Positions 3,592-52,197 of a stretch of DNA of 64,000 bases are shown here, one piece after another (position 1 is the stretch's first letter; each line of letters starts with the position of its first letter). The DNA comes from a virus. Both the position numbers and the translations under genes were made by a program. The notes beneath the pieces are model-generated. The model had not been told where the DNA came from. It made no database searches and saw only the letters and a list, made by a program, of their open reading frames with translations. The DNA lies in IMG/VR virus record IMGVR_UViG_3300047666_001259, positions 32,001 through 96,000 of that record, one strand, 5' to 3'.

Positions 3592-5988
3592 TTATCCACC
3601 CGTGCTTCCATCAGTTGTTTCAGATTCATCCGTAGGGTCGAATAACTCATATGGAATACTTTGCCAAGAGCCAGCCTCTCCATCAAAACCAGTTGTTATT
3701 GGACAAATAGTACTCAATAAAGTAGATAATCTAAAGTTAAAATCACTATAGTTAGTGTCATTACTATAATCATCAAGTATCACAATTCCATTCATAGTTA
3801 TCTTATGCTTATGAATTTCACCTAAGAACGTGTCGGTGCAAAGACCTCCAGACTCATAAGTAACCGCCATGTTAGTGTAAGTTGTTTGTAGATTATATCT
3901 ATTCACAAACGGGTTCACTGGAGCAGTTGTAGTAAATGTTCCTAAATTTAGAGTCTCGCCATCTTCTGATCCCTTCATCACAAAATTGTGGAATCCATTT
4001 TCAATCCCACTCACTGGAATAGTTGGGTGAATATATCTTAGCTTCATTCCATAATCTGCTCTTAAATAAATTGGTCTATTAAAAGTAAACTCCCCTAATT
4101 GAACAGTAGTCTCTCCTAGTATAGCGTTTGTGGGTAAGAAGAATTGAAATTCATTTCCTGTCACAGGAATAATAAAATCCTCTCCCGCAGGAACTGTCTG
4201 TCCGTCAAAAATAATATCATCCCCATTATTGGTAATGATCATTTCAATTTTAGAAACAAAATCTCCATCACTATCGAATCCAAAATTAAAATCAGGGAAA
4301 CTAGAGAAGCTTTGATCAAAATCTTGAGTTGCCTCATTATATTGATGACCCATTTTAACTAACCAAACATTCGATTCTTGATTTGTAGCTTCAGATGAAA
4401 GCCTCCTTAAGTGAGTAGCACTATTACCCTCTGTCATTCTACCCTTTTGCCTATAAAGGTCACCTAGATTGAAAACTACAGGCTTTGTAATTATAGTAGC
4501 ATCTACAATATTAACAGCTCCTTGAATTGGGTATACAGAAGTATCAAATTCCAATCCGAAAGGATTCTCTAAACTAACTGTAACAGATTCAATAAACTCT
4601 GGAATTTGATCAGCAAGTAATTGAATATCTACTGTCTTAGTTAATTCCCCAATTCCCCAAACAACCCTCTGAGGGCTTATTAACCTAAAGTCTGCTTCTT
4701 GGATAGCTATATTTTGTGCTGAATTTAAGTAAGAAAAAACAACATCAACACTTTCTCCTCCGAGAGAGCTAGTTTGATCTAAAGTTAATTCAAGTCTAAC
4801 TAAATCACCTTCTTGCGCATTTAATGTGAACATCAAATCACCCCTTAGTGTTTGATACATTTGCCCAAGGTCTCCAGTAAATCCTACTTTTCTAAATATT
4901 GTGTTATCAATAATTACAGCATTATGCTCTAAATTGTCACCTCCATATACATTTAAGAGAGAAGTTAACTTTATAATAATACTTTCAGGTTGTTCAACAA
5001 CCAAATCGTTATTAACAGTAAGATTTATAGTTTTAAATTGTTCTCCTATACCCCATTGAATTAAGAAATTTTCTCCAATAATAACATCATTAGGATCAGC
5101 GGTTACATATTCGACAACAACCTCAACTTCTTCTATCCCTCTGATAGAAGGTTGAGAAAGAGTTAAGGGTATGGGATACCCAGCGCCTTCGATATACTGC
5201 CCTCTGTTTTCAAGGAAAGATACACCTAGCGCATTGTTATTAAACACTACGTTTTCGTTTGTTTCTAAATTTGTATCTACGAAACACTGAAGAATACTTG
5301 AAACAACGTTGGATTCACCCGGGTTGCTTGGAGAAACATTTTCTAATATTTCAAAATATTCAGCATTCAAGTCAATAATTCCTCCCACATAAGATTCAGC
5401 CAGAATTGGCTGAATCTGAACATCAATCACATCATTACAAACTTTATAAGTCTCAATAGCTGTTTTGTCGTAATTCTTGTAGAGTTTTATCGGAAGATAA
5501 TAACTATCCTCATTCGTGTATTCATACAAATAATCACGAGTAGAGTCAATTCTACTTGCGCCCCCAATGCTAGCTGGCGCACCCGAAGGTCTCACAAACT
5601 CATTCCCATCCCAAGCAAAACTATTGTCACTCACGATTATGTTAATTGTGTTTTTTAATTGATCATCAATAAACACGGTTGGAGAAGGAGTTCCTCCAGC
5701 TACGGTTGTTTGAAAAAATTGGTTAAAAACAATTGAAAGCTTTCGGTCATCATAGAATATTTCCTTCCTCTCTGCTTCGTTAGAATTTTCGTTTAGATAT
5801 TGAATGAAATTATCGATAACAATTTGATTTTGAGAATTGTTCAAATACCCACGAATGTTAAACTCACTAGTAATACCTCCACCCAAACTTTGAGTATAGA
5901 CATAGTAATCATCACTTAATTCCAATTCGCTAACTGTAATTGGAGAGCCTGTAAAACGTGGGTTTAAGAAAAGGTCAAACTGTTGCAT
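3592..5988 (-). CDS. large acidic virion/tail protein with Calx-beta-like repeats
   Basis: Two repeats of the type WGIGE..KT(I/V)....D...E..ES(I/V)...L. Confidence 0.55.
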   Translation of the reverse strand: MQQFDLFLNPRFTGSPITVSELELSDDYYVYTQSLGGGITSEFNIRGYLNNSQNQIVIDNFIQYLNENSNEAERKEIFYDDRKLSIVFNQFFQTTVAGGTPSPTVFIDDQLKNTINIIVSDNSFAWDGNEFVRPSGAPASIGGASRIDSTRDYLYEYTNEDSYYLPIKLYKNYDKTAIETYKVCNDVIDVQIQPILAESYVGGIIDLNAEYFEILENVSPSNPGESNVVSSILQCFVDTNLETNENVVFNNNALGVSFLENRGQYIEGAGYPIPLTLSQPSIRGIEEVEVVVEYVTADPNDVIIGENFLIQWGIGEQFKTINLTVNNDLVVEQPESIIIKLTSLLNVYGGDNLEHNAVIIDNTIFRKVGFTGDLGQMYQTLRGDLMFTLNAQEGDLVRLELTLDQTSSLGGESVDVVFSYLNSAQNIAIQEADFRLISPQRVVWGIGELTKTVDIQLLADQIPEFIESVTVSLENPFGLEFDTSVYPIQGAVNIVDATIITKPVVFNLGDLYRQKGRMTEGNSATHLRRLSSEATNQESNVWLVKMGHQYNEATQDFDQSFSSFPDFNFGFDSDGDFVSKIEMIITNNGDDIIFDGQTVPAGEDFIIPVTGNEFQFFLPTNAILGETTVQLGEFTFNRPIYLRADYGMKLRYIHPTIPVSGIENGFHNFVMKGSEDGETLNLGTFTTTAPVNPFVNRYNLQTTYTNMAVTYESGGLCTDTFLGEIHKHKITMNGIVILDDYSNDTNYSDFNFRLSTLLSTICPITTGFDGEAGSWQSIPYELFDPTDESETTDGSTGG

Positions 5989-28813: not shown

Positions 28814-30019
28814 ATGATAAATTTAGAATACTGTTTAATTGAAAATCAATACAGCAAAGACAAAGAAACTATTGTCTGCATTACACGTAAGGGGGAAATA
28901 GAACTAGATAGGTCAATCACAGAAGATTTGAACTACAAGAGAGCGGTCTTGATTCTACAGAAATATGAATTCCTCGCATTAGAGAAATTATGGTTTGAAT
29001 GTTACAAGAGTGATGGTTTAGATAAAGAGCAGCTTGCGAAAGACTTTTATGATATTGGGATTGATCAATCTGAAGATTTAAAAAACCACTTAAAGGATAT
29101 GATTGAACTTACTTTTGAACTAGAAAGCGACTCTCCTGTTAAAGATAATGGTGATCCTGAGTTTTTTGTACCAGACCAAAATAGTTACACAATTAATATT
29201 GACGATAAGTCAGTAGACACTACTGACTCAAATACGTTTAATTTCACAGATATTAACTTTACCGCTAACAATACAGAAAAAGCTAAGCCAACTTACCAAG
29301 CAAGCAGAAACAGTTTGATATCCTACAAAACTCCAGAGAACAAAGAAGTTGTCTCATTCTGTTTTTATCTTTTCTTAGATGCAAAGCTTTCTGTTAACGG
29401 AGAATACTATTTCCTTTTTAGAGGAGATTTCTTTAATGAGATAGGAAGTGAATCATCCAACTTCATTAAGCCAATAAAATTAGACTTTAAAAGAATTGTG
29501 TATGACGTTAACGCTGTACAAAATAAAATTGTCTTTGAAAGCATAAAAACTTCACAAGAAATTATGGAAGACATTGATTGCCTGTTCTCCACTAAATACA
29601 AATTCTTTAAAGAGTTAAAAAATTCCAAAGGAAAAACTACAAAAGGAACGATGGATTTAGATTTCAACATTCTTGAGATCAAAGACTGTATTGATAAGGG
29701 TGCTAAAATCGTTTTTGAGACATCAATGATGGACTTTCAGACACTTTGTGTGATAAGTGACCGAGTAGAAAAAGAAATCGAAGCAGAGTTATCTGATATG
29801 ATGCCAGTAGTATTTTTACAAAAAGCTGTTGACGAACTACATGAGAAAATAAACACAAAAAGAGTAGAGGCAGCTACGGCAGAGGATTATGAAGACGCTT
29901 CCAAATACAAAGAGCTTCTTGAAGCTGTAGAGGGAAAAAGAAATATGATTTACTCTTACCCTAGTAAAGACATGCCGATGGAAGATTACTTTGAGAAATT
30001 CAAGATAGGAAAATTCTAA
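28814..30019 (+). CDS. hypothetical protein with a C-terminal UVR-like motif
   Basis: EAATAEDYEDASKYKELL. Confidence 0.55.
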   Translation: MINLEYCLIENQYSKDKETIVCITRKGEIELDRSITEDLNYKRAVLILQKYEFLALEKLWFECYKSDGLDKEQLAKDFYDIGIDQSEDLKNHLKDMIELTFELESDSPVKDNGDPEFFVPDQNSYTINIDDKSVDTTDSNTFNFTDINFTANNTEKAKPTYQASRNSLISYKTPENKEVVSFCFYLFLDAKLSVNGEYYFLFRGDFFNEIGSESSNFIKPIKLDFKRIVYDVNAVQNKIVFESIKTSQEIMEDIDCLFSTKYKFFKELKNSKGKTTKGTMDLDFNILEIKDCIDKGAKIVFETSMMDFQTLCVISDRVEKEIEAELSDMMPVVFLQKAVDELHEKINTKRVEAATAEDYEDASKYKELLEAVEGKRNMIYSYPSKDMPMEDYFEKFKIGKF

Positions 30020-30077
30020 AATATGGCTTGTTATTAGAATATTTTTTCTATATTTGCTGTGACAAAAAAGCACAAGT

Positions 30078-31603: not shown

Positions 31604-32713
31604 ATGAACAATCTAGATAAACAATACCAAGACTTACTTCAAGATATTCTTGAAAACGGCACAAAAAAAGGAGATAGAACAGGAACAGGAACTATCTCAG
31701 TGTTCGGAAGACAAATTCGACACAACATGAAAGATGGGTTCCCTCTTTTGACTTCCAAGAAAATGGCAACCAAACAAATTATCACTGAACTTCTTTGGTT
31801 CTTACGTGGTGAGACAAATATTCAATCTCTAGTTCAAGATGGAAACTATATTTGGGTTGGTGATGCTTATAAGAAATACACCACGTACCACAATAACCAT
31901 CCAACTATCCACTCCAATAGATTTGAGATTCTTTCTAGAAAAGATTTCATCGAAAAAATCAAAACTGATAACGATTTTGCTAAACAATGGGGCGATTTAG
32001 GGCCAATCTACGGGAAACAGTGGAGAAAGTGGACTTCCACTTATTTTGATAAATACACCTCTCAAGACCCGAAAGATTTATCAGTTCACGTAGATCAAAT
32101 TGCAGAGATGATAGATAAGCTCAAAAACCGACCAGATGATCGAAGAAATATGGTTACTGCTTGGAATCCAGCTGAAGTAGATGCCGCAACACTTCCTCCA
32201 TGTCATTATGGTTTTCAAGTTTGGACAAGAGAACTCTCTATAAGTGAAAGAAATATGATCATGTACGATCACCCTGAGTTTGATGTAGGTGATGTTCCAA
32301 TAGGAAAGCGAGAAGAGGAAGATAAAGAACATTATCTCAAAATGGATCACCAATTATGTGATGGGTATAATGTTCCAAGGCGAGGAATTTCACTTCTCTG
32401 GAATCAAAGGTCTTGTGATACTCCTTTAGGGATTCCGTTTAACATTGCTTCTTACGGAGCTTTGTTGCAAATATTAGCCCAAACAGTAAACATGGTTCCT
32501 GAGGAGTTGATTGGAAATCTTGGCGACACTCACATTTATTTGAACCAAGTAGATGCAGTAAAAGAACAGCTTAAAAGAGCTTCTCACAAACTACCTCAAT
32601 TGGAAATTGAAATACCAAAAGGAATGACTGACCCTGCTGAGTTAAAGTATGAAAACTTCAAGTTATTAAATTATATATCAGAAGACAAAATTGCCTTCGA
32701 ATTATCAAATTAA
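31604..32713 (+). CDS. thyA: thymidylate synthase
   Basis: DRTGTGT, ELLWFLRG, LGPIYGKQWR, LPPCH, QRSCD..LGIPFNIASY, GDTHIY. Confidence 0.97.
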   Translation: MNNLDKQYQDLLQDILENGTKKGDRTGTGTISVFGRQIRHNMKDGFPLLTSKKMATKQIITELLWFLRGETNIQSLVQDGNYIWVGDAYKKYTTYHNNHPTIHSNRFEILSRKDFIEKIKTDNDFAKQWGDLGPIYGKQWRKWTSTYFDKYTSQDPKDLSVHVDQIAEMIDKLKNRPDDRRNMVTAWNPAEVDAATLPPCHYGFQVWTRELSISERNMIMYDHPEFDVGDVPIGKREEEDKEHYLKMDHQLCDGYNVPRRGISLLWNQRSCDTPLGIPFNIASYGALLQILAQTVNMVPEELIGNLGDTHIYLNQVDAVKEQLKRASHKLPQLEIEIPKGMTDPAELKYENFKLLNYISEDKIAFELSN

Positions 32714-36852: not shown

Positions 36853-38402
36853 ATATCGTAAATATGTTCGTTTCCGTAATTTTTTGCATAATCTTTAATA
36901 AACACACCGGCTATAGAGTTTGCTTCATCCTCGATGTCCCCACCAATATCTTGTACTGGATCACCAATATTAAACAACCCAAGTTCTCTCTGCCTGTTGT
37001 GAACTAGCTCATGAGCAATACTTCTTAAGATATCTACCATAGCTCTACCTCCGCAGACAATGTAATTCTCATTATAGTAAGGAGAATAAGCTGCTGTAGT
37101 CATCCCATCCTTTTTCTTATCCATTAAAATAACTTTAATAGGCTCTTTCATTTCAAGCTTGAATTGAACAAAGCACATGAAGTCTTGTATGGTCTCTAAT
37201 TTTATAGGGGTCATTCCTCTAATTTCTCCCTCTATCGTAATCCAATTCTCATCGTCCTCGATATCCTTGGCTTCGTTTATTTTGTTTTTTGCTACCTTCT
37301 TTTTTTCTTTAGCCATTTCAGGATTGGTAGTAAAAGCAAAATCATCAACATCACCTTTTTTCATTTGCTTAGCAGCTTTTCCAGCTTCTCCCGAAGGCTC
37401 AATGTCTCCTGACTGCATTTGGTCAACAACATTGAAAAACTTTCTTTGCTTGTCCGATACAGCTTTCTCATCAATTGAGATGTAATCGTTAAAGGATTTT
37501 ATCTTAAGATCAGATAATGTGTCTAGATACCCTTTCTTTCTAAGGTATTTAAAAGCTAAATTTGCTGCACTCAGCTCTTCTTTATCAGTTTCAAGACCTT
37601 TAGAACGAGCATTCCATATTTTATCAGAGATTCTATCTACTAGTCCCCCGATTTTGTCAAACCCATTTGCTTTCTCAGCTTTTTCAATCATTCCAATAAA
37701 AGAAACCACCTTCTTTTTAACATCTTCGACATCAATTTTAGAGTTGTTCTTTTCTGGTTTTGTGTTCCATGTATTTTTTACAAGAGAATACTCACCATTA
37801 GAGTGAGTTTTTTGTTCAGAGTCTTGAGCATACAATTCTATATCGTGTCCTTTAATGCGAACATCGTACTTAGAATTCCAAACAGTTTTCTTAGCATGAA
37901 GAAATTCAGATACTAAATCTTCATCATCATCGATCTTATCGTAATCAATCACAAGGTGAACATCAATATCGCTAGTTTCGTTGTAAGTATAATGAGCCAT
38001 TGACCCAACTATAACAACATCTCTAATAGGTGCTTTGATCTTTAAGAACTCATAAAAGTCTTTTGCAGCCGTAAGAAGGGCAGTGCGGACATCACTCTTG
38101 AGAGTTTGGTCTTTATCCCACAGAATATCACTCAAACCATCTTTAATCACCCCAGAGGCTTTAAAATCGATATCGTCAACATTGATCTCATCTAAAATTT
38201 CTCTGTACCTGTGAGGGTAGAAGTATTTTTTAGATGGGCTATTTGGGTTTCTATGTGCGGCTGATTTCTTAGACGCAAGGGAAGTGTTACGGGGGGATTC
38301 TTGAGTTAAGTCCTCGTTTTCTGTCGAAAGAATAAACTTATCGTCAGCTCCATTCCTCTCGGAAATATTTTTCTTTTTGTAAGTTCTTGAACTTCTTGAC
38401 AT
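36849..38402 (-). CDS. Pol-beta-superfamily nucleotidyltransferase fused to a C-terminal HExxH zincin-like domain
   Basis: VGSMAHY....SDIDVH, third acid in DIELY; ILRSIAHELVH..Q...EDEAN. Confidence 0.75.
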   Translation of the reverse strand: MSRSSRTYKKKNISERNGADDKFILSTENEDLTQESPRNTSLASKKSAAHRNPNSPSKKYFYPHRYREILDEINVDDIDFKASGVIKDGLSDILWDKDQTLKSDVRTALLTAAKDFYEFLKIKAPIRDVVIVGSMAHYTYNETSDIDVHLVIDYDKIDDDEDLVSEFLHAKKTVWNSKYDVRIKGHDIELYAQDSEQKTHSNGEYSLVKNTWNTKPEKNNSKIDVEDVKKKVVSFIGMIEKAEKANGFDKIGGLVDRISDKIWNARSKGLETDKEELSAANLAFKYLRKKGYLDTLSDLKIKSFNDYISIDEKAVSDKQRKFFNVVDQMQSGDIEPSGEAGKAAKQMKKGDVDDFAFTTNPEMAKEKKKVAKNKINEAKDIEDDENWITIEGEIRGMTPIKLETIQDFMCFVQFKLEMKEPIKVILMDKKKDGMTTAAYSPYYNENYIVCGGRAMVDILRSIAHELVHNRQRELGLFNIGDPVQDIGGDIEDEANSIAGVFIKDYAKNYGNEHIYDI

Positions 38403-38414
38403 GTTCGAGGGGTT

Positions 38415-39122
38415 TTAAATTAATTTTTCAAAATCCTCGCTGCTGTATTCATACCAAGTTTCAAATAGTTGATTGAAAACATTCAAGGAATGTCCTGCTT
38501 TAGAGGCGTTCATTTGATTTGCTTCATCAAGCTTGTCAAAATCAAAATTAGCTTTCTTTACTAGGACACACTCTTCTTTGTCCATAATAACTACTAATCT
38601 GTCTTGATTCTGCGGAAGACCCCACATTCTAGATTCTTTGATTCTACCTTTGTCTTCAGGGATTTCATAACCCATTAATCTTTTAAAGGTATCTTGCTCC
38701 TGTTCTTTCTTGTAGCTCTGCTTCTTTTGATCGTTGTAAACCTTCATAGCCTCATTGATCTTTGGGTTTCCTTTTTCCCAAGACTTCCCTTCTTGACCTG
38801 TAGGGACTTTAATTGTGGAGTCGGGGTTAAATGATGGGCAAATTGCTGGAATAGAGTTTCCTGATTTGTCGGTCATTCCCGGCAATAGAAGCTCATCCTC
38901 ATCCTGATGAAGCTTAGAATCATGCATCTCATTAATTGAAGTGAAAATACCTTTTTCCAAATCTTCTTTCATTTGATTCACATCAGCCATAAGAGAATCA
39001 ATATCATATTCCTCCCCTTCAGGAAGAATAATATTCTTCTCAACAGCATCAGCCTTTTGGTCAGAGGTTAAATCCCTGTTCAATTTCTCCAAAAGTTTTT
39101 CGAAACTTGTTTTATTTTTCAT
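38415..39122 (-). CDS. hypothetical late protein
   Basis: 235 aa, TATTTAT upstream. Confidence 0.6.
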   Translation of the reverse strand: MKNKTSFEKLLEKLNRDLTSDQKADAVEKNIILPEGEEYDIDSLMADVNQMKEDLEKGIFTSINEMHDSKLHQDEDELLLPGMTDKSGNSIPAICPSFNPDSTIKVPTGQEGKSWEKGNPKINEAMKVYNDQKKQSYKKEQEQDTFKRLMGYEIPEDKGRIKESRMWGLPQNQDRLVVIMDKEECVLVKKANFDFDKLDEANQMNASKAGHSLNVFNQLFETWYEYSSEDFEKLI

Positions 39123-46242: not shown

Positions 46243-46502
46243 TCCCAATAGATATAGAACATGAACTCTATTATGATCGTGGCAAGCCTGAGTTAAGAGA
46301 GAGAACTCGTAATAGATTAATTAAGATGAAAGAGGTTGGGATGGAAGCATACCATAACTATCAATTCGGTTATGAAGGTGTGATGTCAGGTCTTTGGATT
46401 GAAAGAGTTTGGGGCTTTAGTGAAGAGAGATGGAATAAATACATGAAATGGGCAACGGACTTAATTAAAGAGAAAACAGATGAAGCTACTAAGGTGTCCT
46501 AA
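46239..46502 (+). CDS. hypothetical protein
   Basis: ORF track, overlaps both neighbours. Confidence 0.6.
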   Translation: MIPIDIEHELYYDRGKPELRERTRNRLIKMKEVGMEAYHNYQFGYEGVMSGLWIERVWGFSEERWNKYMKWATDLIKEKTDEATKVS

Positions 46503-47838
46503 TTGTAATGACGTTATCCGTTTAGTTCATATTGAATGGAGAACTTGTGAGTGTGGAGGTTGTGGAGGTCAATATAATAAAGACCTCATGAGCGCAACCA
46601 TCGGAGGGAAATGCGATGTAATTGGGCTATCAAATTTATTCTTCAACGAAGACTTTAGAAAAAAGACTTGGGAAGAAAAAGTGGAATTCAGAAAAGAAAT
46701 TAACCATTACCCCGCTGAGATTTGGTTCGGAGAGATGCAAGGCGACAATCAGATCATTCGTATTGAAGACCCTAAAGGTGGGAGAATTGAAATGGATGTA
46801 GAGTTTGACCCAGAGAGTGAAACTACTAAATCAATCATCACAGACAAAAGAAATTATTTTGTTAACCTTGCTGACGATACAAAGCCGAAAGAATTAATTA
46901 TTCATAATAAAATGGTTCCGTCTTTTAGAGATGCTGAAATGAGATTGGGAGGAAAGTCTTCCGCTGTTGAAGCCATAACAGATAGAACAAAAGAACAAAA
47001 GAACAATAACATGGAGACAATCAATTACGAAGAAGTAGCAACCCATATTACCAAGTGGTTGAAAAATTACAGCGTAAAAGCTGGGGCTAAAGGATATGTT
47101 CTTGGTATTTCAGGAGGAGTGGATTCAGCGGTAGTTTCTACTTTGTGTGCCAGAACTGGACTGCCTCTAACTTGTTTGGAAATGCCGATCCACCAAAACG
47201 AAGAACATGACACTCGTGCTGCAAGACATATTGATTGGCTTGAAGAAAATTTTGATTACGTAACAAGAGAAAGAGTTGATTTGACAGCAACTTTCGATTT
47301 GTTCATGAACTCAAACAGTATTATTCAAGGTGGGGACATGTCCGCTGTTCGGCTAGCAGGAGCCAACGCCAGAAGTAGACTTAGAATGGTTCAGCTTTAC
47401 TTAATAGCTTCAATCAAGAATATGTTGGTCTGCGGTACGGGAAACAAGGTTGAAGATTTTGGTGTAGGATTCTATACTAAGTACGGTGATGGAGGAGTTG
47501 ATGTAAGTCCAATTGCAGACCTTTTAAAGACAGAAGTTTGGGGATTGGCAAAACACCTTGGAATAAACGAAGAAATCGTTTCTGCCATACCTTCAGATGG
47601 TTTGTGGGGAGATACTAGATCAGATGAAGATCAGATTGGAGCCTCTTACCCAGAGCTTGAATGGGCAATGGCTTATATCGATAAAAATTACACTGACATT
47701 TCAATGGGGGTTCATCCTTACAATGATGTTACGGAAAGACAAATGGAAGTAATTGACATTTATAGAGGATTCAATTCTCGAAACCAACACAAGATGGTAG
47801 AGATTCCCGTTTGCGATGTTTCTAAATTTAGAAATTAA
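46480..47838 (+). CDS. nadE: NH3-dependent NAD+ synthetase with an in-frame N-terminal Cys-rich domain (NadE domain starts at ATG 47011)
   Basis: LGISGGVDSAV, NARSRLRM, GTGNKVE, FYTKYGDGG, PSDGLW, DEDQIG, HK. Confidence 0.92.
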   Translation: MKLLRCPNCNDVIRLVHIEWRTCECGGCGGQYNKDLMSATIGGKCDVIGLSNLFFNEDFRKKTWEEKVEFRKEINHYPAEIWFGEMQGDNQIIRIEDPKGGRIEMDVEFDPESETTKSIITDKRNYFVNLADDTKPKELIIHNKMVPSFRDAEMRLGGKSSAVEAITDRTKEQKNNNMETINYEEVATHITKWLKNYSVKAGAKGYVLGISGGVDSAVVSTLCARTGLPLTCLEMPIHQNEEHDTRAARHIDWLEENFDYVTRERVDLTATFDLFMNSNSIIQGGDMSAVRLAGANARSRLRMVQLYLIASIKNMLVCGTGNKVEDFGVGFYTKYGDGGVDVSPIADLLKTEVWGLAKHLGINEEIVSAIPSDGLWGDTRSDEDQIGASYPELEWAMAYIDKNYTDISMGVHPYNDVTERQMEVIDIYRGFNSRNQHKMVEIPVCDVSKFRN

Positions 47839-47856
47839 TAACATTTAAATCGAATT

Positions 47857-48168
47857 ATGAAAAAAGAAAATTTAATAGAACAATATAAAGAAATATCGAA
47901 AACATATTCATCTTTTGAAGATTGTTATAATCTTGTAACAGAAACTAATAATGTAGAAATATGTAAATTTTGTTTAGATTCTGATGGTATTTGGAAAAGA
48001 CTTGAATTACAATGGATGTTGGAATTTTTTCAAACCAACGAAGAATATGAAAAATGTGAAGTTTTGAAAAAATTAATAGAAGAACATTTTATTGCTGATG
48101 AATATAAACAAAATGAGTTGAATAGTAAATTAGATGAATATGTTTCTTATATAAATAACGGTAGTTAG
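47857..48168 (+). CDS. hypothetical protein (possibly first cassette of array 2)
   Basis: EEYEKCEVLK motif; very AT-rich; ends in TAACGGTAGTTAG. Confidence 0.65.
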   Translation: MKKENLIEQYKEISKTYSSFEDCYNLVTETNNVEICKFCLDSDGIWKRLELQWMLEFFQTNEEYEKCEVLKKLIEEHFIADEYKQNELNSKLDEYVSYINNGS

Positions 48169-48512
48169 TAATCCTATATAAGAATAGTAATAAAGGACGT
48201 GGAACTGCCGCTAATGAAATAATGAGTGGTTATGCGTTGTATAATAACAACTGTGCTGAACCCACTTGGTTACTTACTGAGTTTAATTATTTAAAAGAAA
48301 CAACAAATATTAAATTCAAAAAATACTTTGGATATAAATTAACTGAAGAAGAAAGCGTTGTGTTTTGCTATGAAAATGATTGATATAATGAGTGAGACAC
48401 TAAGGAGTGCAAAGGGAGTGCCTAATGGCTCTTTTCGGTGTGCCGATGACGAATGTATGTTATCCCCCTCTCATTCATTATATCTTTTGTTATTGTGCGT
48501 TTTAATACACTC

Positions 48513-48714
48513 TAACGGTTTGTGTATGGGTATTTTTTGCCCGATTTAATAATAACTAAAATTTAATAAAATGACTGAGGAAATTAAGCAATTACTGATT
48601 GACTGTGCAAACTTTATCCAACCGTATGATGATGGAGGAAACGAAGCTGAAAGGTTAATGATAAGACTTGATGAAGCACTAAAGCAAGGGTAATAATTAC
48701 CTATACACGTTGTT
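48513..48714 (+). repeat. attC-like hairpin B2 with an ORF in the loop
   Basis: GTGTATGGGTATTTTTTGCCC pairs with GGGTAATAATTACCTATACAC. Confidence 0.75.
48571..48693 (+). CDS. 40 aa ORF inside the B2 loop (not in the ORF track)
   Basis: MTEEIKQLLIDCANFIQPYDDGGNEAERLMIRLDEALKQG with the shared AATAACTAAA leader. Confidence 0.55.
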   Translation: MTEEIKQLLIDCANFIQPYDDGGNEAERLMIRLDEALKQG

Positions 48715-48736
48715 GTATGTCTTTTTTAATTGCATA

Positions 48737-48790
48737 CAATATGTTGTATGTGCCGTTATGAGGCACGAGCAATGAATTTTAAACCTTGTT
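48737..48790 (+). repeat. attC-like hairpin B3, homolog of A1
   Basis: GTATGTGCCGTTATGAGGCACGA..AATG..TAAAC..TGTT. Confidence 0.65.
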
Positions 48791-48805
48791 AGGCACTTTA
48801 CGATA

Positions 48806-48997
48806 ATGGATAAGATGGAATCATTCACGTACAAAGGCTTCAAGGTAGACCCAACTTGTTATAACTATGGTTTTGAATGTATAGTTCAAGACGAAGCACC
48901 AAAGCTATTTGGTATGTCTATAAATGGCATCAAGTTAGAGATTGACGAATGGATTAAAAAAGAAAAAAGGGAAGGGGAAAACTTAGAGTACCTATAA
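48806..48997 (+). CDS. hypothetical protein (cassette cargo)
   Basis: ORF track. Confidence 0.65.
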   Translation: MDKMESFTYKGFKVDPTCYNYGFECIVQDEAPKLFGMSINGIKLEIDEWIKKEKREGENLEYL

Positions 48998-49014
48998 AAT
49001 TAAAGACAAATAAA

Positions 49015-49320
49015 ATGAACGAATCAAAAGAAATGATGGGGGAGCAATGTTTAACCGAAAAACAAACATTAAAAACCTCTTTAGAAAAATTAAACCAAAG
49101 AAACTATGAACTGAATGATATTGCGTCATTAAGTTCTCTATTAGTAGAAAAATTCTTTAACCCTAATAACGAGCCTAGAGATAATCAAGGTTCTGATAGA
49201 GAAAAAGAAAGACAGCCTGATAATATAGTTGAAGTTTTTGACGAGGTATCTAAAAAGCTTGGTAATAACATAAACACTATTGGGAGCAATTTGCAAAGAA
49301 TATTGGCAATAATGGAATAA
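49015..49320 (+). CDS. coiled-coil hypothetical protein (cassette cargo)
   Basis: ORF track. Confidence 0.65.
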   Translation: MNESKEMMGEQCLTEKQTLKTSLEKLNQRNYELNDIASLSSLLVEKFFNPNNEPRDNQGSDREKERQPDNIVEVFDEVSKKLGNNINTIGSNLQRILAIME

Positions 49321-49392
49321 CCAACTTGTGAGCGTGGGCTTTTTCTTATTAGCAGAATGTTTGATTTGAAACTGAATTTAGCCCATGACTTA

Positions 49393-49479
49393 CAACGTTT
49401 AGGCTAAGGTTAGTAGCCTTTAATACTAACCATTAAATTATAACAAGACCTATTGAGGCTATTAATTTTAGCCATTGTT
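49393..49479 (+). repeat. attC-like hairpin B5
   Basis: GGCTAAGGTTAGTAGCCT pairs with AGGCTATTAATTTTAGCC; related to the A7 arms. Confidence 0.75.
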
Positions 49480-49493
49480 AGGCATAGTTTATT

Positions 49494-49697
49494 ATGGAAG
49501 CAAGAGAATTTTACGACAAAAGAATTAACGAAGAACCGACTATTGGAAGCGTACAGTTAATGGAAGAATATGCAAAACATATTATTGAAATTAACTTTTG
49601 TGATGGCTCTCCTATTGAATTTAACAAACTATCGGTTGAGCAACTAAAAACAATTCACAAAAATATAAATAAGTGTGTCGATTGGGTTAACTCCTAA
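49494..49697 (+). CDS. hypothetical protein (cassette cargo)
   Basis: Bounded by GTTAGGCATAGTT and AATTGTGCCTAAC. Confidence 0.7.
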   Translation: MEAREFYDKRINEEPTIGSVQLMEEYAKHIIEINFCDGSPIEFNKLSVEQLKTIHKNINKCVDWVNS

Positions 49698-49704
49698 TTG
49701 TGCC

Positions 49705-49828
49705 TAACGGAATTGTATAAGGTTTCGTTACGTAGATTAAATAATAAATTAACAAATAAAAACTGAATTGTGATTAAGCAAGAAAATAATAAACAAACAG
49801 AAATTAGTAATGAACTTTATACGGTGTT
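49705..49828 (+). repeat. attC-like hairpin B6
   Basis: GTATAAGGTTTCGTTAC pairs with GTAATGAACTTTATAC, one extra base in the left arm. Confidence 0.75.
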
Positions 49829-50108
49829 ATGCCCCGTTAATTTGTTTAGGTACTTCCTTCGCAAGCAATACAAAGACGTTGAAATTAGTAACGAAGAATG
49901 CGATGAATTAAACACAGACTTTCACAAACACTTAACAAGCCTAAAGTTAAGCGAAAAGCAAAAGGAAAACATAATGCCTAAAAGTGAAATAGATGTAATA
50001 ATGAACTCTGAACACCCATTAAGAATGGATGGATTTAGCCCTGCTTATGTTTTTCATTTTGGTGAATATATAAAAAGTAGAGCAGTCGCATTGGCTAATG
50101 GGGCATAG
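49770..50108 (+). CDS. hypothetical protein starting in the B6 loop
   Basis: SNELYTVL is encoded by the right arm; ends TAATGGGGCATAG, complementary to GTTATGCCCCGTTA. Confidence 0.65.
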   Translation: MIKQENNKQTEISNELYTVLCPVNLFRYFLRKQYKDVEISNEECDELNTDFHKHLTSLKLSEKQKENIMPKSEIDVIMNSEHPLRMDGFSPAYVFHFGEYIKSRAVALANGA

Positions 50109-50113
50109 CTGTT

Positions 50114-50302
50114 GTTATCGGCAGTTTAATTGAAAAATATCAAAAAGTTCGCAATAAAAATCAGGAGCAATTTATGACTCAATTTGGAAATGAATATTCT
50201 ATATCAAACGCACTTTTATTGGAAGAAAGAGATTGTTGCGACAGATTTATAGAAGATTTGAAAAAACTGCCGATAACGGCTGATGATAAACAATCGTTTT
50301 AA
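50114..50302 (+). pseudogene. headless cassette ORF left after collapse of its upstream hairpin
   Basis: Open frame VIGSLIEKYQKVRNK...KLPITADDKQSF* beginning exactly at the GTT core. Confidence 0.45.
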
Positions 50303-50320
50303 TGTTGTTTATCATTTGTT
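50274..50320 (+). repeat. attC-like hairpin B8 (shortest intact site)
   Basis: TAAC GGCTG ATGATAAACAA TCGTTTTAATG TTGTTTATCAT TT GTT. Confidence 0.8.
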
Positions 50321-50433
50321 ATGTGTAGGTGTGGTTAATTAAGGTAGAATGTTTAATCGGAGAACTGAACAAAAATTTTAAAAGAAAAAGAAGGGTTGAT
50401 TTTAAAATTTGAATATTTATATATAAACATATT

Positions 50434-50952
50434 ATGAGTGAAGATATGAGAAAAATGATTGATAAAGCTAAGAACTTTAATCAGTTTTTAAATGAAAACG
50501 AAAATTTAATGAACCAAATATTAGATAAAATTAGTTCTAATGGTATAACATCATTAAATACTGGTGAATTAAAATATTTGAAACAATATTCTTCTGGACA
50601 AATAAATCCAGATTTAGAAAAAGCACTTCAAGTTGAAAGTGGTTTTGTTTTTGTTTCAAAAAATATACCACTGTTAAGATTTGAATATAATTTCACCGAA
50701 GAATCAGATGAAGAATATCAAAAAATGCTACACAAAGGAACCGTTTATATTGACGGATTAGAATTTGATGGAGATATTTATTGTGATGAAAATGGAAAAT
50801 ATGAAGCATTCGATTTTCACACATATCAATCCAATGATGATGGCACAACTGACCAAATAGAAGATTTAGCTTACTATGATGATGAGTTAGATGGTAAGAT
50901 AGAAAAATTCTTTAAAAATGAAGTTTCTCCTTACTTAACCTATTCATTTTAA
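50434..50952 (+). CDS. acidic protein with a phage-late-type N-terminus (cassette cargo)
   Basis: MSEDMRKMIDKAKNFNQFLNENEN; TATTTAT at 50414-50420. Confidence 0.7.
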   Translation: MSEDMRKMIDKAKNFNQFLNENENLMNQILDKISSNGITSLNTGELKYLKQYSSGQINPDLEKALQVESGFVFVSKNIPLLRFEYNFTEESDEEYQKMLHKGTVYIDGLEFDGDIYCDENGKYEAFDFHTYQSNDDGTTDQIEDLAYYDDELDGKIEKFFKNEVSPYLTYSF

Positions 50953-51001
50953 AAAGTTGGCGGGATTTTTCTTTTAAAATTTTCAACCGAAATGTTGATT
51001 A

Positions 51002-51041
51002 GAACGATAAACGGAACGATAAACGGAACGATAAACGGAAC
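51002..51041 (+). repeat. 12 bp tandem repeat GAACGATAAACG x3.3
   Basis: Direct reading of the sequence. Confidence 0.9.
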
Positions 51042-51050
51042 ACTTACACA

Positions 51051-51140
51051 TAACGTTAAGTATATGGTTTTGTAAGCCATAGCAGAAATTTACAAATTAA
51101 AAACGAATATTAATTAGGCTTATAAACTATATACATTGTT
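51051..51140 (+). repeat. attC-like hairpin B9
   Basis: GTATATGGTTTTGTAAGCC pairs with GGCTTATAAACTATATAC. Confidence 0.8.
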
Positions 51141-51178
51141 GTGTGTAATACGGGATTTAAGCCACAAACTTTATAAAA

Positions 51179-51361
51179 ATGCAAAGAAAGATAAATTGCA
51201 AACACAACAACATGGGTGCTTGGTGTACCAACAAGGATATAAAACGCTCATTGTTTGGTATAGGTGCAAGATGTTGTACTGAATTTAATGACAAAAAATG
51301 TGATTTAAAAGAAATTAGAACAAGGAAAGGCAAGCCGCCACCAAGACCAACGAAAGCGTAG
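51179..51361 (+). CDS. small Cys-rich basic protein (cassette cargo)
   Basis: Bounded by GTTGTGTGTAATAC and GTATTACACACAAT. Confidence 0.7.
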   Translation: MQRKINCKHNNMGAWCTNKDIKRSLFGIGARCCTEFNDKKCDLKEIRTRKGKPPPRPTKA

Positions 51362-51370
51362 TATTACACA

Positions 51371-51588
51371 CAATGTTATGGATATGGATTGATTTTTAAC
51401 GGATAAATAAACACAGAATTATGAATATAGACGAAGAAAATAAAGCAAAAGAATTTTACATTAAGAGTGCTATAAATGGCATTCATACACCACGAACTAA
51501 TATGGTTGAGATAAACTATTTAGATATGCTAAAGCTAATGCACTCTTACAGCCAAGAGGTAGTTAAAAATTTATCTATATCTGGTGTT
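51371..51588 (+). repeat. attC-like hairpin B10 with coding loop
   Basis: GGATATGGATTGATTTTTAAC pairs with GTTAAAAATTTATCTATATCT. Confidence 0.75.
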
Positions 51589-51759
51589 AAGAACTGGGTG
51601 GCGGTTAAAGACTCTATGCCCGAAAATTGCGACCAAGTTTTTGTAAAGTATGAAAATGGCAAATATGGAATAAATGAATGGTGGAAAAGTGATGATTGCT
51701 GGAAATACCAATTTGATAATATGATAGTAAAAGAATGGTGTAAGCCACCTTGTTCTTAA
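51421..51759 (+). CDS. DUF551-like protein starting in the B10 loop
   Basis: NWVAVKDSMPE...VFV...V.EW.KPP. Confidence 0.7.
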   Translation: MNIDEENKAKEFYIKSAINGIHTPRTNMVEINYLDMLKLMHSYSQEVVKNLSISGVKNWVAVKDSMPENCDQVFVKYENGKYGINEWWKSDDCWKYQFDNMIVKEWCKPPCS

Positions 51760-51819
51760 CGTCTCGTATATGGTGTCGGAATTTTATTTTTCTTAAAATT
51801 ATGCATTATATACTTTGTT
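51757..51819 (+). repeat. attC-like hairpin B11
   Basis: GTATATGGTGTCGGAATTT pairs with AAATTATGCATTATATAC. Confidence 0.7.
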
Positions 51820-51853
51820 ACCAATAGTACGGATTTTAATAACTAAATTTAAT

Positions 51854-52135
51854 ATGAAAACAATAACTTCAATTATAGCACTAGCTAAGGCATTTTTTAT
51901 ATTGCTTGTTAGGCGTAGTGCTTCTTTACCGCAAGTCTTAATGACTAAAAATGATTTTGAATTAGTTTTAAACCACTATCTACTAAATTATTGGGATATA
52001 AAACATGAAAATATTGATGGATTTGAACATTTAACAATTCAAAATCATTTACCATTTTATAAAAAAAGGTTTGAAGAAATGAAAAAAGTAATTGATGAAC
52101 GCAAGATTATTCGTGTGATGGTGCATTACACCTAA
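51854..52135 (+). CDS. hypothetical protein (cassette cargo; likely ATG 51854)
   Basis: Crosses an orphan right arm and GTT at 51890-51910; ends GCATTACACCTAA, complementary to GTTAGGCGTAGTGC. Confidence 0.65.
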   Translation: MKTITSIIALAKAFFILLVRRSASLPQVLMTKNDFELVLNHYLLNYWDIKHENIDGFEHLTIQNHLPFYKKRFEEMKKVIDERKIIRVMVHYT

Positions 52136-52197
52136 CACTGGAATAGATTGCGTTTCAATGCAACTCTATGGAATGTTAAAGCACGTTTTAATGTGCT
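52133..52197 (+). repeat. terminal attC-like hairpin B13 plus tail hairpin
   Basis: TAACACTGGAATAGATTGCG..TGCAACTCTATGGAATGTTAAAGCACGTTTTAATGTGCT. Confidence 0.75.

Follow-up and report, generated by a model that had tools for sequence, protein, structure and literature searches.

The stretch analysed here (the window) comprises 64,000 nt of IMG/VR record IMGVR_UViG_3300047666_001259, i.e. bases 32001-96000 of a linear 105.9-kb contig from a large marine phage that is about 31% complete according to CheckV. We take this phage to be lytic, and its host is probably a member of the Bacteroidota. Our subject is array 2 (window positions 48375-52177), a series of hairpin sites and small genes that begins shortly past nadE (46480-47838) and in which every open reading frame (ORF) lies on the + strand. 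Its cargo consists almost wholly of ORFans: for ten cassette ORFs, Pfam and PHROGs returned only DUF6576 and a weak phrog_924 match.

Site architecture and complementary unit ends

Nine sites of array 2 (S2, S3, S5, S6 and S8-S12) follow a regular layout made of (T)AAC, 3-6 nt, a 10-22-bp stem enclosing a loop of 11-161 nt, 0-4 nt and GTT. Three more (S4, S4b and S13) are irregular, and all of these about 12 sites are co-oriented. The order of their parts is attC-like, R''(..AAC), spacer, L'', loop, L', spacer, R'(GTT..), the R box being completed by the next unit. The L stems are gapless, with surplus unpaired bases on the AAC arm of the + strand. An initial annotation, made from the letters of the window, had described hairpins separating short unrelated ORFs. 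The hairpins are there, but they do not always act as separators: a 40-aa ORF sits inside the loop of S3, ORFs start within the loop or stem of S6, S10 and S12 with reading frames that cross GTT, and three "units" of 27-32 nt are empty. Moreover, the stop codon TAA of two ORFs falls inside the (C/T)TAAC box.

The same annotation held that the bases following each GTT do not match their own hairpin but are complementary to those preceding the next AAC. All six end pairs that it quoted are found in the sequence where it had placed them, with 13/13 matches for 50114/50277, 12/13 for both 50318/51054 and 51138/51374, and 11/13 for 49477/49708, 51586/51760 and 51908/52136. A seventh pair was found at 49826/50109, in a unit that is followed by the next one with no intervening hairpin. 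Counted over the whole genome without regard to their order, GTT...AAC pairs within 2.5 kb are no more numerous than expected by chance (97, versus 71-100 in shuffles), so that any test must use the order of the sites. We compared 11 consecutive pairs, each made of a GTT and the next AAC, over the 10 nt beyond the triplets, and permuted the partners 200,000 times. The natural order gave 76 matches, versus 43.2 ± 5.5 after permutation, and shuffled partners never paired equally well (0 of 200,000 permutations reached 76). Pairing with the AAC of the same hairpin amounted to 3.9/10, which is chance, in agreement with the earlier description. Over 131 site pairs of the whole family presented below, the match was 7.1/10 with the next AAC and 4.3/10 with the own AAC, versus 4.09 ± 0.12 for permuted partners. 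The complementarity of unit ends is thus selected, beyond chance.

A site family beside a Xer-like recombinase gene

Relatives of one window unit led to a 26-kb phage contig (L082/L087) with an eight-site array, the last unit of which ends at the start of a gene for a 294-aa tyrosine recombinase. With a profile built from three of these recombinases (A1), we found 68 viral loci, many of which lie on contigs of 100-460 kb. Site density around the recombinase gene was measured with a simple AACG-hairpin-GTT pattern. Within 3 kb upstream and on the same strand, 190 sites were detected in 139 kb, or 136 per 100 kb, versus 6.6 per 100 kb downstream on the same strand, 3.5 on the opposite strand and 2.25 per strand in 1.31 Mb of unrelated phage loci; no cluster of at least three sites occurred in these 1.31 Mb. 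A generic hairpin scan without the AACG filter was too noisy (63 hits on each strand) and was discarded.

Sixty-five recombinase-adjacent sites could be aligned, with an invariant TAACG...TGTT and 98% of cells paired. Compensatory changes affect 18 of the 20 L-stem pairs, and the covariation score is 0.627 versus 0.159. We trained a covariance model (CM), R1, on these 65 sites, all from other phages and none from the genome of the window. In the 64-kb window, the only matches of CM R1 were S9, S5, S8, S11 and S12 (23-58 bits) and four sites of a second array, array 1, each of them on the + strand, while two matches were obtained in the 1.31 Mb of control loci. Array-2 sites are therefore recovered in a strand-specific manner by a model that owes nothing to them. 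Both control matches (L011 9183-9289 and L023 9114-9173) are followed, some 0.8 kb downstream and on the same strand, by NadE homologues; NAD-salvage genes may often border or ride in such arrays.

Individual sites are also shared at the sequence level. According to BLAST, more than 15 recombinase-adjacent arrays contain a copy of S8 that is 89-98% identical and invariably begins with (A)TAAC, and S3, loop ORF included, has a homologue in another such array (L119 2687-2872). The arms of S10 differ from those of L087 by compensatory changes.

The recombinase can be aligned over its full length with the XerA-like protein 4a8e (E 5e-53), and it scores as a XerA/XerC/XerD protein. Its alignment with the integron integrase VchIntIA (2a3v) falls into two pieces, with 24 profile positions opposite 71 integrase residues, showing that the IntI-specific insertion is absent. 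Its bacterial relatives (33-39% identity) are mostly from Bacteroidota, and the genes of several of them, including those of a Maribacter and a Polaribacter chromosome and of a Tenacibaculum genome, likewise adjoin arrays. Recombinase homologues with arrays are present in L195 (Maribacter sp. R77961), L224 (Polaribacter sp. R77954), L210, L230 and L240; some of the Bacteroidota arrays are upstream and co-oriented as in phages, others downstream and on the opposite strand.

The initial annotation had suggested searching phage and host for an IntI-like tyrosine recombinase or an HUH enzyme. Searches of the 105.9-kb contig with PF00589 and with profile A1 gave no match, and no integron integrase lies near the array. 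The HUH Y1 transposase family (PF01797), characteristic of IS200/IS605 or REP/RAYT hairpin elements, had no match at E ≤ 1. In the recovered contig, array 2 is directly followed not by a recombinase gene but by a terminator-like element and then ordinary genes.

Unit boundaries and the strand that folds

Comparison of contigs showed that whole units differ between them. The flanks of L087 (IMG/VR) and L093 (a TARA scaffold) share only one block of 370 nt, at 97% identity, which spans exactly TAAC, hairpin, GTT and body up to the next AAC-G. L151 and L154 are nearly identical recombinase loci, except that L151 has one additional unit of 797 nt, located exactly between ...CATAAC and the recombinase leader; in this unit, spacer and hairpin come first, and a complementary R'' box of its own closes it. 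L149 and L152 are 100% identical from ATAAC on and unrelated before it, while L149/L154 and L134/L136 diverge at the last TAAC. Together, the shared block, the insertion and the points of divergence indicate that the moving unit consists of a site and the gene downstream of it, is bounded by TAAC and enters next to the recombinase gene. These units do not show the order of a gene followed by attC with crossover at G|TT: they extend from one TAAC to the next, their 5' end being occupied by the hairpin.

A conserved leader separates the last unit from the recombinase start in L149, L151, L152 and L154, about 60 nt ahead of the ATG, as well as in L134 (4275-4330) and L136 (6003-6058). It reads TAAC then TA..ATATATCAACACCTA...AAAACC.CT.TATAAAACAA.GTTTTAA, with a TATCATATATCAACACC-like sequence after TAAC. 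As the spot of unit insertion or replacement, it is a candidate attI-like site.

A second and older kind of junction was revealed by the "tail" unit of array 2 (51586-51760). This unit is 94% identical to its counterparts in L087 and L093, with identity ending at AAC+G, and in other contigs it is joined at GTT to five unrelated hairpins and gene heads. Its ends covary, AAG/CTT being replaced by AGT/ACT and GGTGGC/GCCACC by GGTAGC/GCTACC. In one contig the R'' box lies past the stop codon, which shows that the pairing of the tail ends is selected at the nucleic-acid level. The weak phrog_924 match covers only residues 58-101 of ORF 51421-51759, i.e. its post-GTT part.

Array 2 itself could not be compared with a syntenic relative, as none of the flank searches gave a usable one: the NadE flank returned 80 loci, of which the sole close one stops at the gene, and the 154-aa downstream gene and a 101-aa cassette ORF had no relative in the viral contig set. 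The phage's own population was followed in assembled (Logan) contigs of ice-metagenome runs, of which two were compared in detail, ignoring low-support joints (side <30). Six runs contain 91-96% of the stretch. In two of them, long unique contigs end at 48739 and restart at 51844, both of which are located at R'' triplets, and the interval between is fragmented into short contigs at sites. One contig of run X6 links 48740 (...CAAT) to an S5-type hairpin (49401), omitting 660 nt, and in the same run 48953-49344 is also found within another contig of 2840 nt that is three times more abundant.

The strand that pairs was identified from wobbles, G.T and A.C pairs being scored alike. The L stems of the window contain 126 Watson-Crick pairs, 20 G.T and no A.C, and the unit-end (R) stems 6 G.T versus 1 A.C, giving 26 to 1 for the window. 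In the arrays of other phages, the R stems, which had no role in picking those sites, contain 86 G.T versus 1 A.C. One wobble is near-invariant, column pair 29/82 being G.U in 64 of the 65 aligned sites, and the G following AAC is always opposite the T preceding GTT. This bias indicates that selection has favoured pairing of the coding strand, in the form of either single-stranded DNA or RNA. In canonical attC, the bottom (non-coding) strand folds and recombines and has extrahelical bases opposite the AAC arm (PMC5027507); the ratios of 26:1 in the window and 86:1 in other phages favour the coding strand instead. A longer spacer on the AAC arm is the geometry of the non-recombined top strand of canonical attC (Nivina et al. 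2016, PMC5027507), whereas in array 2 it is found on the AAC arm of the strand that folds, which is a real difference. We do not take this asymmetry as evidence of canonical polarity, since both the wobble bias and the unit boundaries indicate the reverse.

The features of array 2 are listed in Table 1.

Table 1. Sites and units of array 2 in window coordinates. End matches are counted over the 10 nt past the triplets.
Feature	Positions	Strand	Details
Site S2 (core AAT)	48375-48491	+	arms 48382-48397 / 48469-48484, 71-nt loop, then TTTT-GTT; 16-bp stem of 15 Watson-Crick pairs and 1 G.T
Empty unit, 28 nt, S2 GTT to S3 AAC	48489-48516	+	end matches 6/10
Site S3	48514-48711	+	arms 48522-48542 / 48688-48708; 145-nt loop with complete 40-aa ORF 48571-48693
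Empty unit, 32 nt, ending AAT	48709-48740	+	flanking long contigs of runs X1 and X6 end here
Irregular site S4	48738-48790	+	3' half 48759-48792 matches Maribacter phage Panino at 100%
Two-ORF unit	48788-49396	+	ORFs 48806-48997 and 49015-49320; irregular hairpin S4b, arms 49328-49340 / 49380-49393; ends non-complementary
Site S5	49394-49479	+	AAC-GTTTA-18-bp stem-loop 36-stem-ATT-GTT; CM R1 55 bits, E 3e-8 on +, 19.8 bits on -
Unit with 67-aa ORF 49494-49697	49477-49708	+	ends GTTAGGCATAGTT / AATTGTGCCTAAC; 8/10
Site S6	49706-49828	+	13-bp stem, 88-nt loop; 112-aa ORF 49770-50108 begins in loop
Unit GTTATGCCCCGTT ... AATGGGGCATAGC (core AGC)	49826-50109	+	ends 9/10; then TGTT and next GTT, hairpin-less junction 50109-50114
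Unit with perfect ends GTTATCGGCAGTT / AACTGCCGATAAC	50114-50277	+	10/10; 42-aa ORF 50174-50302
Site S8	50275-50320	+	12-bp stem, 11-nt loop (TCGTTTTAATG); CM R1 38 bits, E 6e-5
Unit with 172-aa ORF 50434-50952 (DUF6576 N-terminus)	50318-51054	+	ends 9/10
Site S9	51052-51140	+	AAC-GTTAA-GTATATGGTTT ... AAACTATATAC-ATT-GTT; CM R1 58 bits, E 7e-9
Unit with 60-aa ORF 51179-51361	51138-51374	+	ends GTTGTGTGTAATA / TATTACACACAAT; 10/10
Site S10 (core AAT)	51372-51588	+	20-22-bp stem; 161-nt loop with start and first 47 codons of 112-aa ORF 51421-51759; GTT is codon 56
"Tail" unit GTTAAGAACTGGGTGGC ... GCCACCTTGTTCTTAAC	51586-51760	+	residues 56-112 of ORF 51421-51759; stop TAA within TAAC box
Site S11	51758-51819	+	CM R1 30 bits, E 0.002
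Empty unit, 27 nt	51817-51843	+	downstream long contig of run X1 starts at 51844, right past this AAC
Site S12	51841-51910	+	ATG 51865 in 5' arm; CM R1 23 bits, E 0.05
Last unit GTTAGGCGTAGTG ... CATTACACCTAAC	51908-52136	+	ends 8/10; ORF stops on TAA within CTAAC
Terminal element	52134-52197	+	weak site S13 (arms 52143 / 52159), short GC hairpin, T-rich run

Several of these features show additional regularities. The matching piece of S4 corresponds to positions 4001-4034 of Panino (L001, PP540027.1), 34 nt with unlike flanks on both sides; it contains GAGG..ATG and a mini-ORF of six codons that stops on the TAG of GTTAGG. Comparable loops with a Shine-Dalgarno-like sequence and an ATG are held by sites of Polaribacter phage P12002L. 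In the 737-nt unit, a perfect 18-nt inverted repeat (50372-50389 / 50966-50983) lies in the leader and trailer of the 172-aa ORF. This leader (50316-50389) and trailer (50962-51018) flank other ORFs, at 91-98% identity, in the recombinase-adjacent arrays of L131, L138, L140 and L154, forming a second, nested level of modularity. The trailer of the unit also carries AACGATAAACGG three times in tandem (3 x 12 nt, 51003-51038), right before the R'' box. A conserved (A)CGGATT(T)TAA-like motif is present 15-30 nt before the ATG of many cassette ORFs (window 48541-48552, 51152-51163, 51396-51410 and 51828-51845) and in Panino (L001 3250-3275 and 3690-3715), and is a candidate promoter or translation signal carried by each unit. 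Finally, arrays 1 (2617-2685) and 2 close alike: a weak AAC(A)C...GAATGTT site comes first, then a short GC hairpin and finally a T-rich stretch. The stems are letter-swapped (GCAC/GTGC versus GTGC/GCAC), and this element may be a terminator closing each array.

A probable integron-like system and its alternatives

We consider it probable, at roughly 70%, that array 2, which lacks an integrase, belongs to a distinct cassette system that resembles the integron, is typical of phages of Bacteroidota type and is also present in Bacteroidota chromosomes. The attC-cassette footprint proposed in the initial annotation survives as far as hairpin recombination sites delimiting mobile units are concerned, in line with the covarying ends, the TAAC-bounded unit differences and the recombinase linked elsewhere. 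Its identification with canonical attC and IntI has to be abandoned, since the coding strand folds, units run from TAAC to TAAC and the enzyme is Xer-like and devoid of the IntI insertion.

In the mechanism that we propose, the site would be a folded single-strand hairpin, probably of DNA. It would start with an R box that pairs (T)AAC with GTT(A), followed by an internal loop with unequal sides (about 5 versus about 2 nt) and then by an L stem in which G.T wobbles are conserved. The R box would become long (10-17 bp) only once the two ends of a unit meet, as in a putative excised circle. The Xer-like recombinase, encoded at the downstream end of the arrays in other phages, would cut and exchange the coding strand at or within TAAC|G, a position that can be placed only to the shared TAAC(G). 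A mobile unit would then comprise a hairpin, often with a translation start, followed by GTT, the gene body and TAAC, and new units would enter between the last TAAC and the conserved recombinase leader. A rarer exchange at GTT may join loop-encoded gene "heads" to different "tails". For the phage of the window, the enzyme would be encoded in the unrecovered 70% or so of the genome, or act in trans.

Several observations weigh against this model. A single crossover at TAAC explains neither the breakpoints at GTT (one tail, five heads) nor those within loops (the Panino 34-mer and the left edge at 51561). Sites S4, S4b and S13 and the hairpin-less junction at 50109-50114 are degenerate or chimeric, suggesting that array 2 may be decaying or rarely active. 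The link between enzyme and sites is an association, and there are other reasons for which islands of accessory genes are often found close to integrases. In the 105.9-kb contig, searches revealed no recombinase of the tyrosine, serine or HUH type; this is weak evidence, because the contig is estimated to cover only about 31% of the genome. Lastly, conserved G.U-type wobbles on a transcribed strand are equally expected of a functional RNA structure.

This last point leads to the alternative that fares best, although we judge it improbable: the hairpins would be RNA elements only, i.e. stems of a polycistronic mRNA involved in processing, stability or translational control, and modularity would be a by-product. 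The orientation of all sites with the genes, the strong preference for G.U-type wobbles, some of them near invariant, and the start codons carried in loops are all compatible with it. However, whole units are present or absent in the DNA of different contigs, with breakpoints exactly at TAAC, and the sites are tightly linked to a recombinase. Pairing of sequences that lie 160-740 nt apart, on either side of a whole ORF, is most readily understood if the unit ends become joined. There was no Rfam match, and no terminator-like hairpin was found where 1.6 were expected. An RNA role in addition to recombination is possible.

Somewhat less probable still are ordinary bacterial integron cassettes, of the type known as clusters of attC sites lacking integrases (CALIN), derived from a host integron, with any recombination carried out by host IntI on the bottom strand. 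The R''/L''/L'/R' order with AAC and GTT cores is that of attC, some boxes fit RYYYAAC/GTTRRRY exactly (GCCTAAC / GTTAGGC), and the longer spacer on the AAC arm of the + strand corresponds to the canonical top strand (PMC5027507). In addition, HattCI called a member of the family as an attC in Polaribacter phage P12002L (PMC9892861). Against this, the wobble bias assigns folding to the coding strand, boundaries lie at TAAC|G with the site upstream of the gene, ORFs start in loops and the linked recombinase lacks the IntI insertion. Furthermore, this very site, P12002L_attC1, was the sole one of six phage sites not recombined by IntI1 (PMC9892861).

Clusters of attC sites in virulent phages have indeed been published; the initial annotation knew of no such description in lytic phages. 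Qi, Rajabal, Ghaly, Tetu and Gillings (2023, Front Microbiol) described 17 phage CALINs, three of them in virulent isolates, including one site of the family studied here; IntI1 recombined five of the six sites tested, and the sites were treated as canonical attC and as an exchange route with bacterial integrons (PMC9892861). Their CALINs and array 2 are alike in being attC-type clusters in phages without an integron integrase, but neither a dedicated recombinase, nor a reversal of strand or polarity, nor a comparison at the level of units was reported (PMC9892861). P12002L_attC1 is the CM R1 match at NC_028924 30002-30062 on the - strand, with the layout of S8 and the same TCGTTTTAAT loop, and is co-oriented with methyltransferase genes. 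In P12002L (L185, NC_028924), the family sites at 30002-30062, 32217-32287, 38029-38096 and 38873-38942, all on the - strand, bracket DNA methyltransferase and Mom-like genes, which makes counter-defence genes a cargo of such sites in a cultured phage.

Compared with bacterial integrons, the phage system has in common folded single-strand sites with R and L boxes and AAC/GTT triplets beside an unpaired spacer, and an R box that is hybrid in the array and complete only with unit ends joined. Both form arrays of small, unrelated, co-oriented genes adjoining a tyrosine recombinase of the Xer/IntI branch, with entry next to the recombinase gene. In contrast, the phage recombinase lacks the IntI insertion, and its gene follows the array in the same orientation; folding involves the coding strand, each site stands before its gene and boundaries are at TAAC|G. 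The phage sites have an asymmetric internal loop (about 5 versus about 2 nt), no extrahelical bases in the L stem and some conserved G.T, and their ORFs start in loops and can fuse across GTT.

Of other phage cassettes, the PeSL type of T4-type phages, reportedly described by Arbiol et al. in 2010, is said to consist of small genes in hyperplastic regions whose promoter and stem-loop repeats are thought to recombine by homology. An array of this type, i.e. regulatory cassettes with a promoter and a stem-loop between small genes, shuffled by homologous or microhomology recombination without a dedicated enzyme, would share with ours the small ORFan genes between repeated stem-loops in a plastic region of a large phage genome, the conserved CGGATTTAA-like motif upstream of many starts and recurring sites such as the S8 hairpin, which could act as homology; it is nevertheless a remote prospect, because every unit has its own distinct covarying end pair, which homology shuffling neither requires nor maintains, and because junctions have no more than 3-5 nt in common (TAAC, GTT), the triplet core is conserved and linkage to one recombinase clade is strong. 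A scan for promoters and terminators gave no excess of sigma-70-type promoters, the scan not covering those of Bacteroidota, and the terminator result given above.

Xer enzymes are known to act on folded DNA, since the single-stranded attP of the CTX phage is folded and recombined by XerCD. In Acinetobacter plasmids, pdif gene modules are bounded by inverted Xer sites (PMC7399989). Such systems resemble the phage arrays in that a Xer-type enzyme works on a folded hairpin or moves gene modules; they differ in relying on host XerC/D and dif-like 28-bp sites, with no hairpin arrays with unit-specific, covarying R boxes and no array-adjacent phage enzyme. Full-text literature searches found no paper describing the link to a Xer-like recombinase, the coding-strand polarity or the TAAC-bounded units.

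A broader proposal, for which we see the chances as evenly balanced, is that this is a second kind of integron, found mainly in large Bacteroidota phages and in Bacteroidota chromosomes, with a Xer-like recombinase without the I2 insertion, coding-strand hairpins, units that put the site upstream and bring their own start, and chimeric proteins produced by occasional in-frame exchange at GTT. Array 2 would then be a cassette store, served in trans or by an enzyme encoded in the part of the genome that was not recovered.

Capturing and shuffling genes is, in bacteria, the textbook role of integrons, and to our knowledge single-strand hairpin recombination has been thought to depend on an insertion unique to IntI. 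The phage system seems to capture and shuffle genes too, by means of a simpler Xer-like enzyme, on the other strand and with cassettes of inverted polarity. It bears on the evolution of single-strand recombination, on the renewal of accessory and counter-defence genes in large phages and on the origin of chimeric proteins. The published marine-phage CALINs include sites that are probably not substrates of IntI, which alters the inference of a bridge to bacterial integrons. The ORFans of array 2, for their part, provide a ready list of candidate genes for phage-host interaction.

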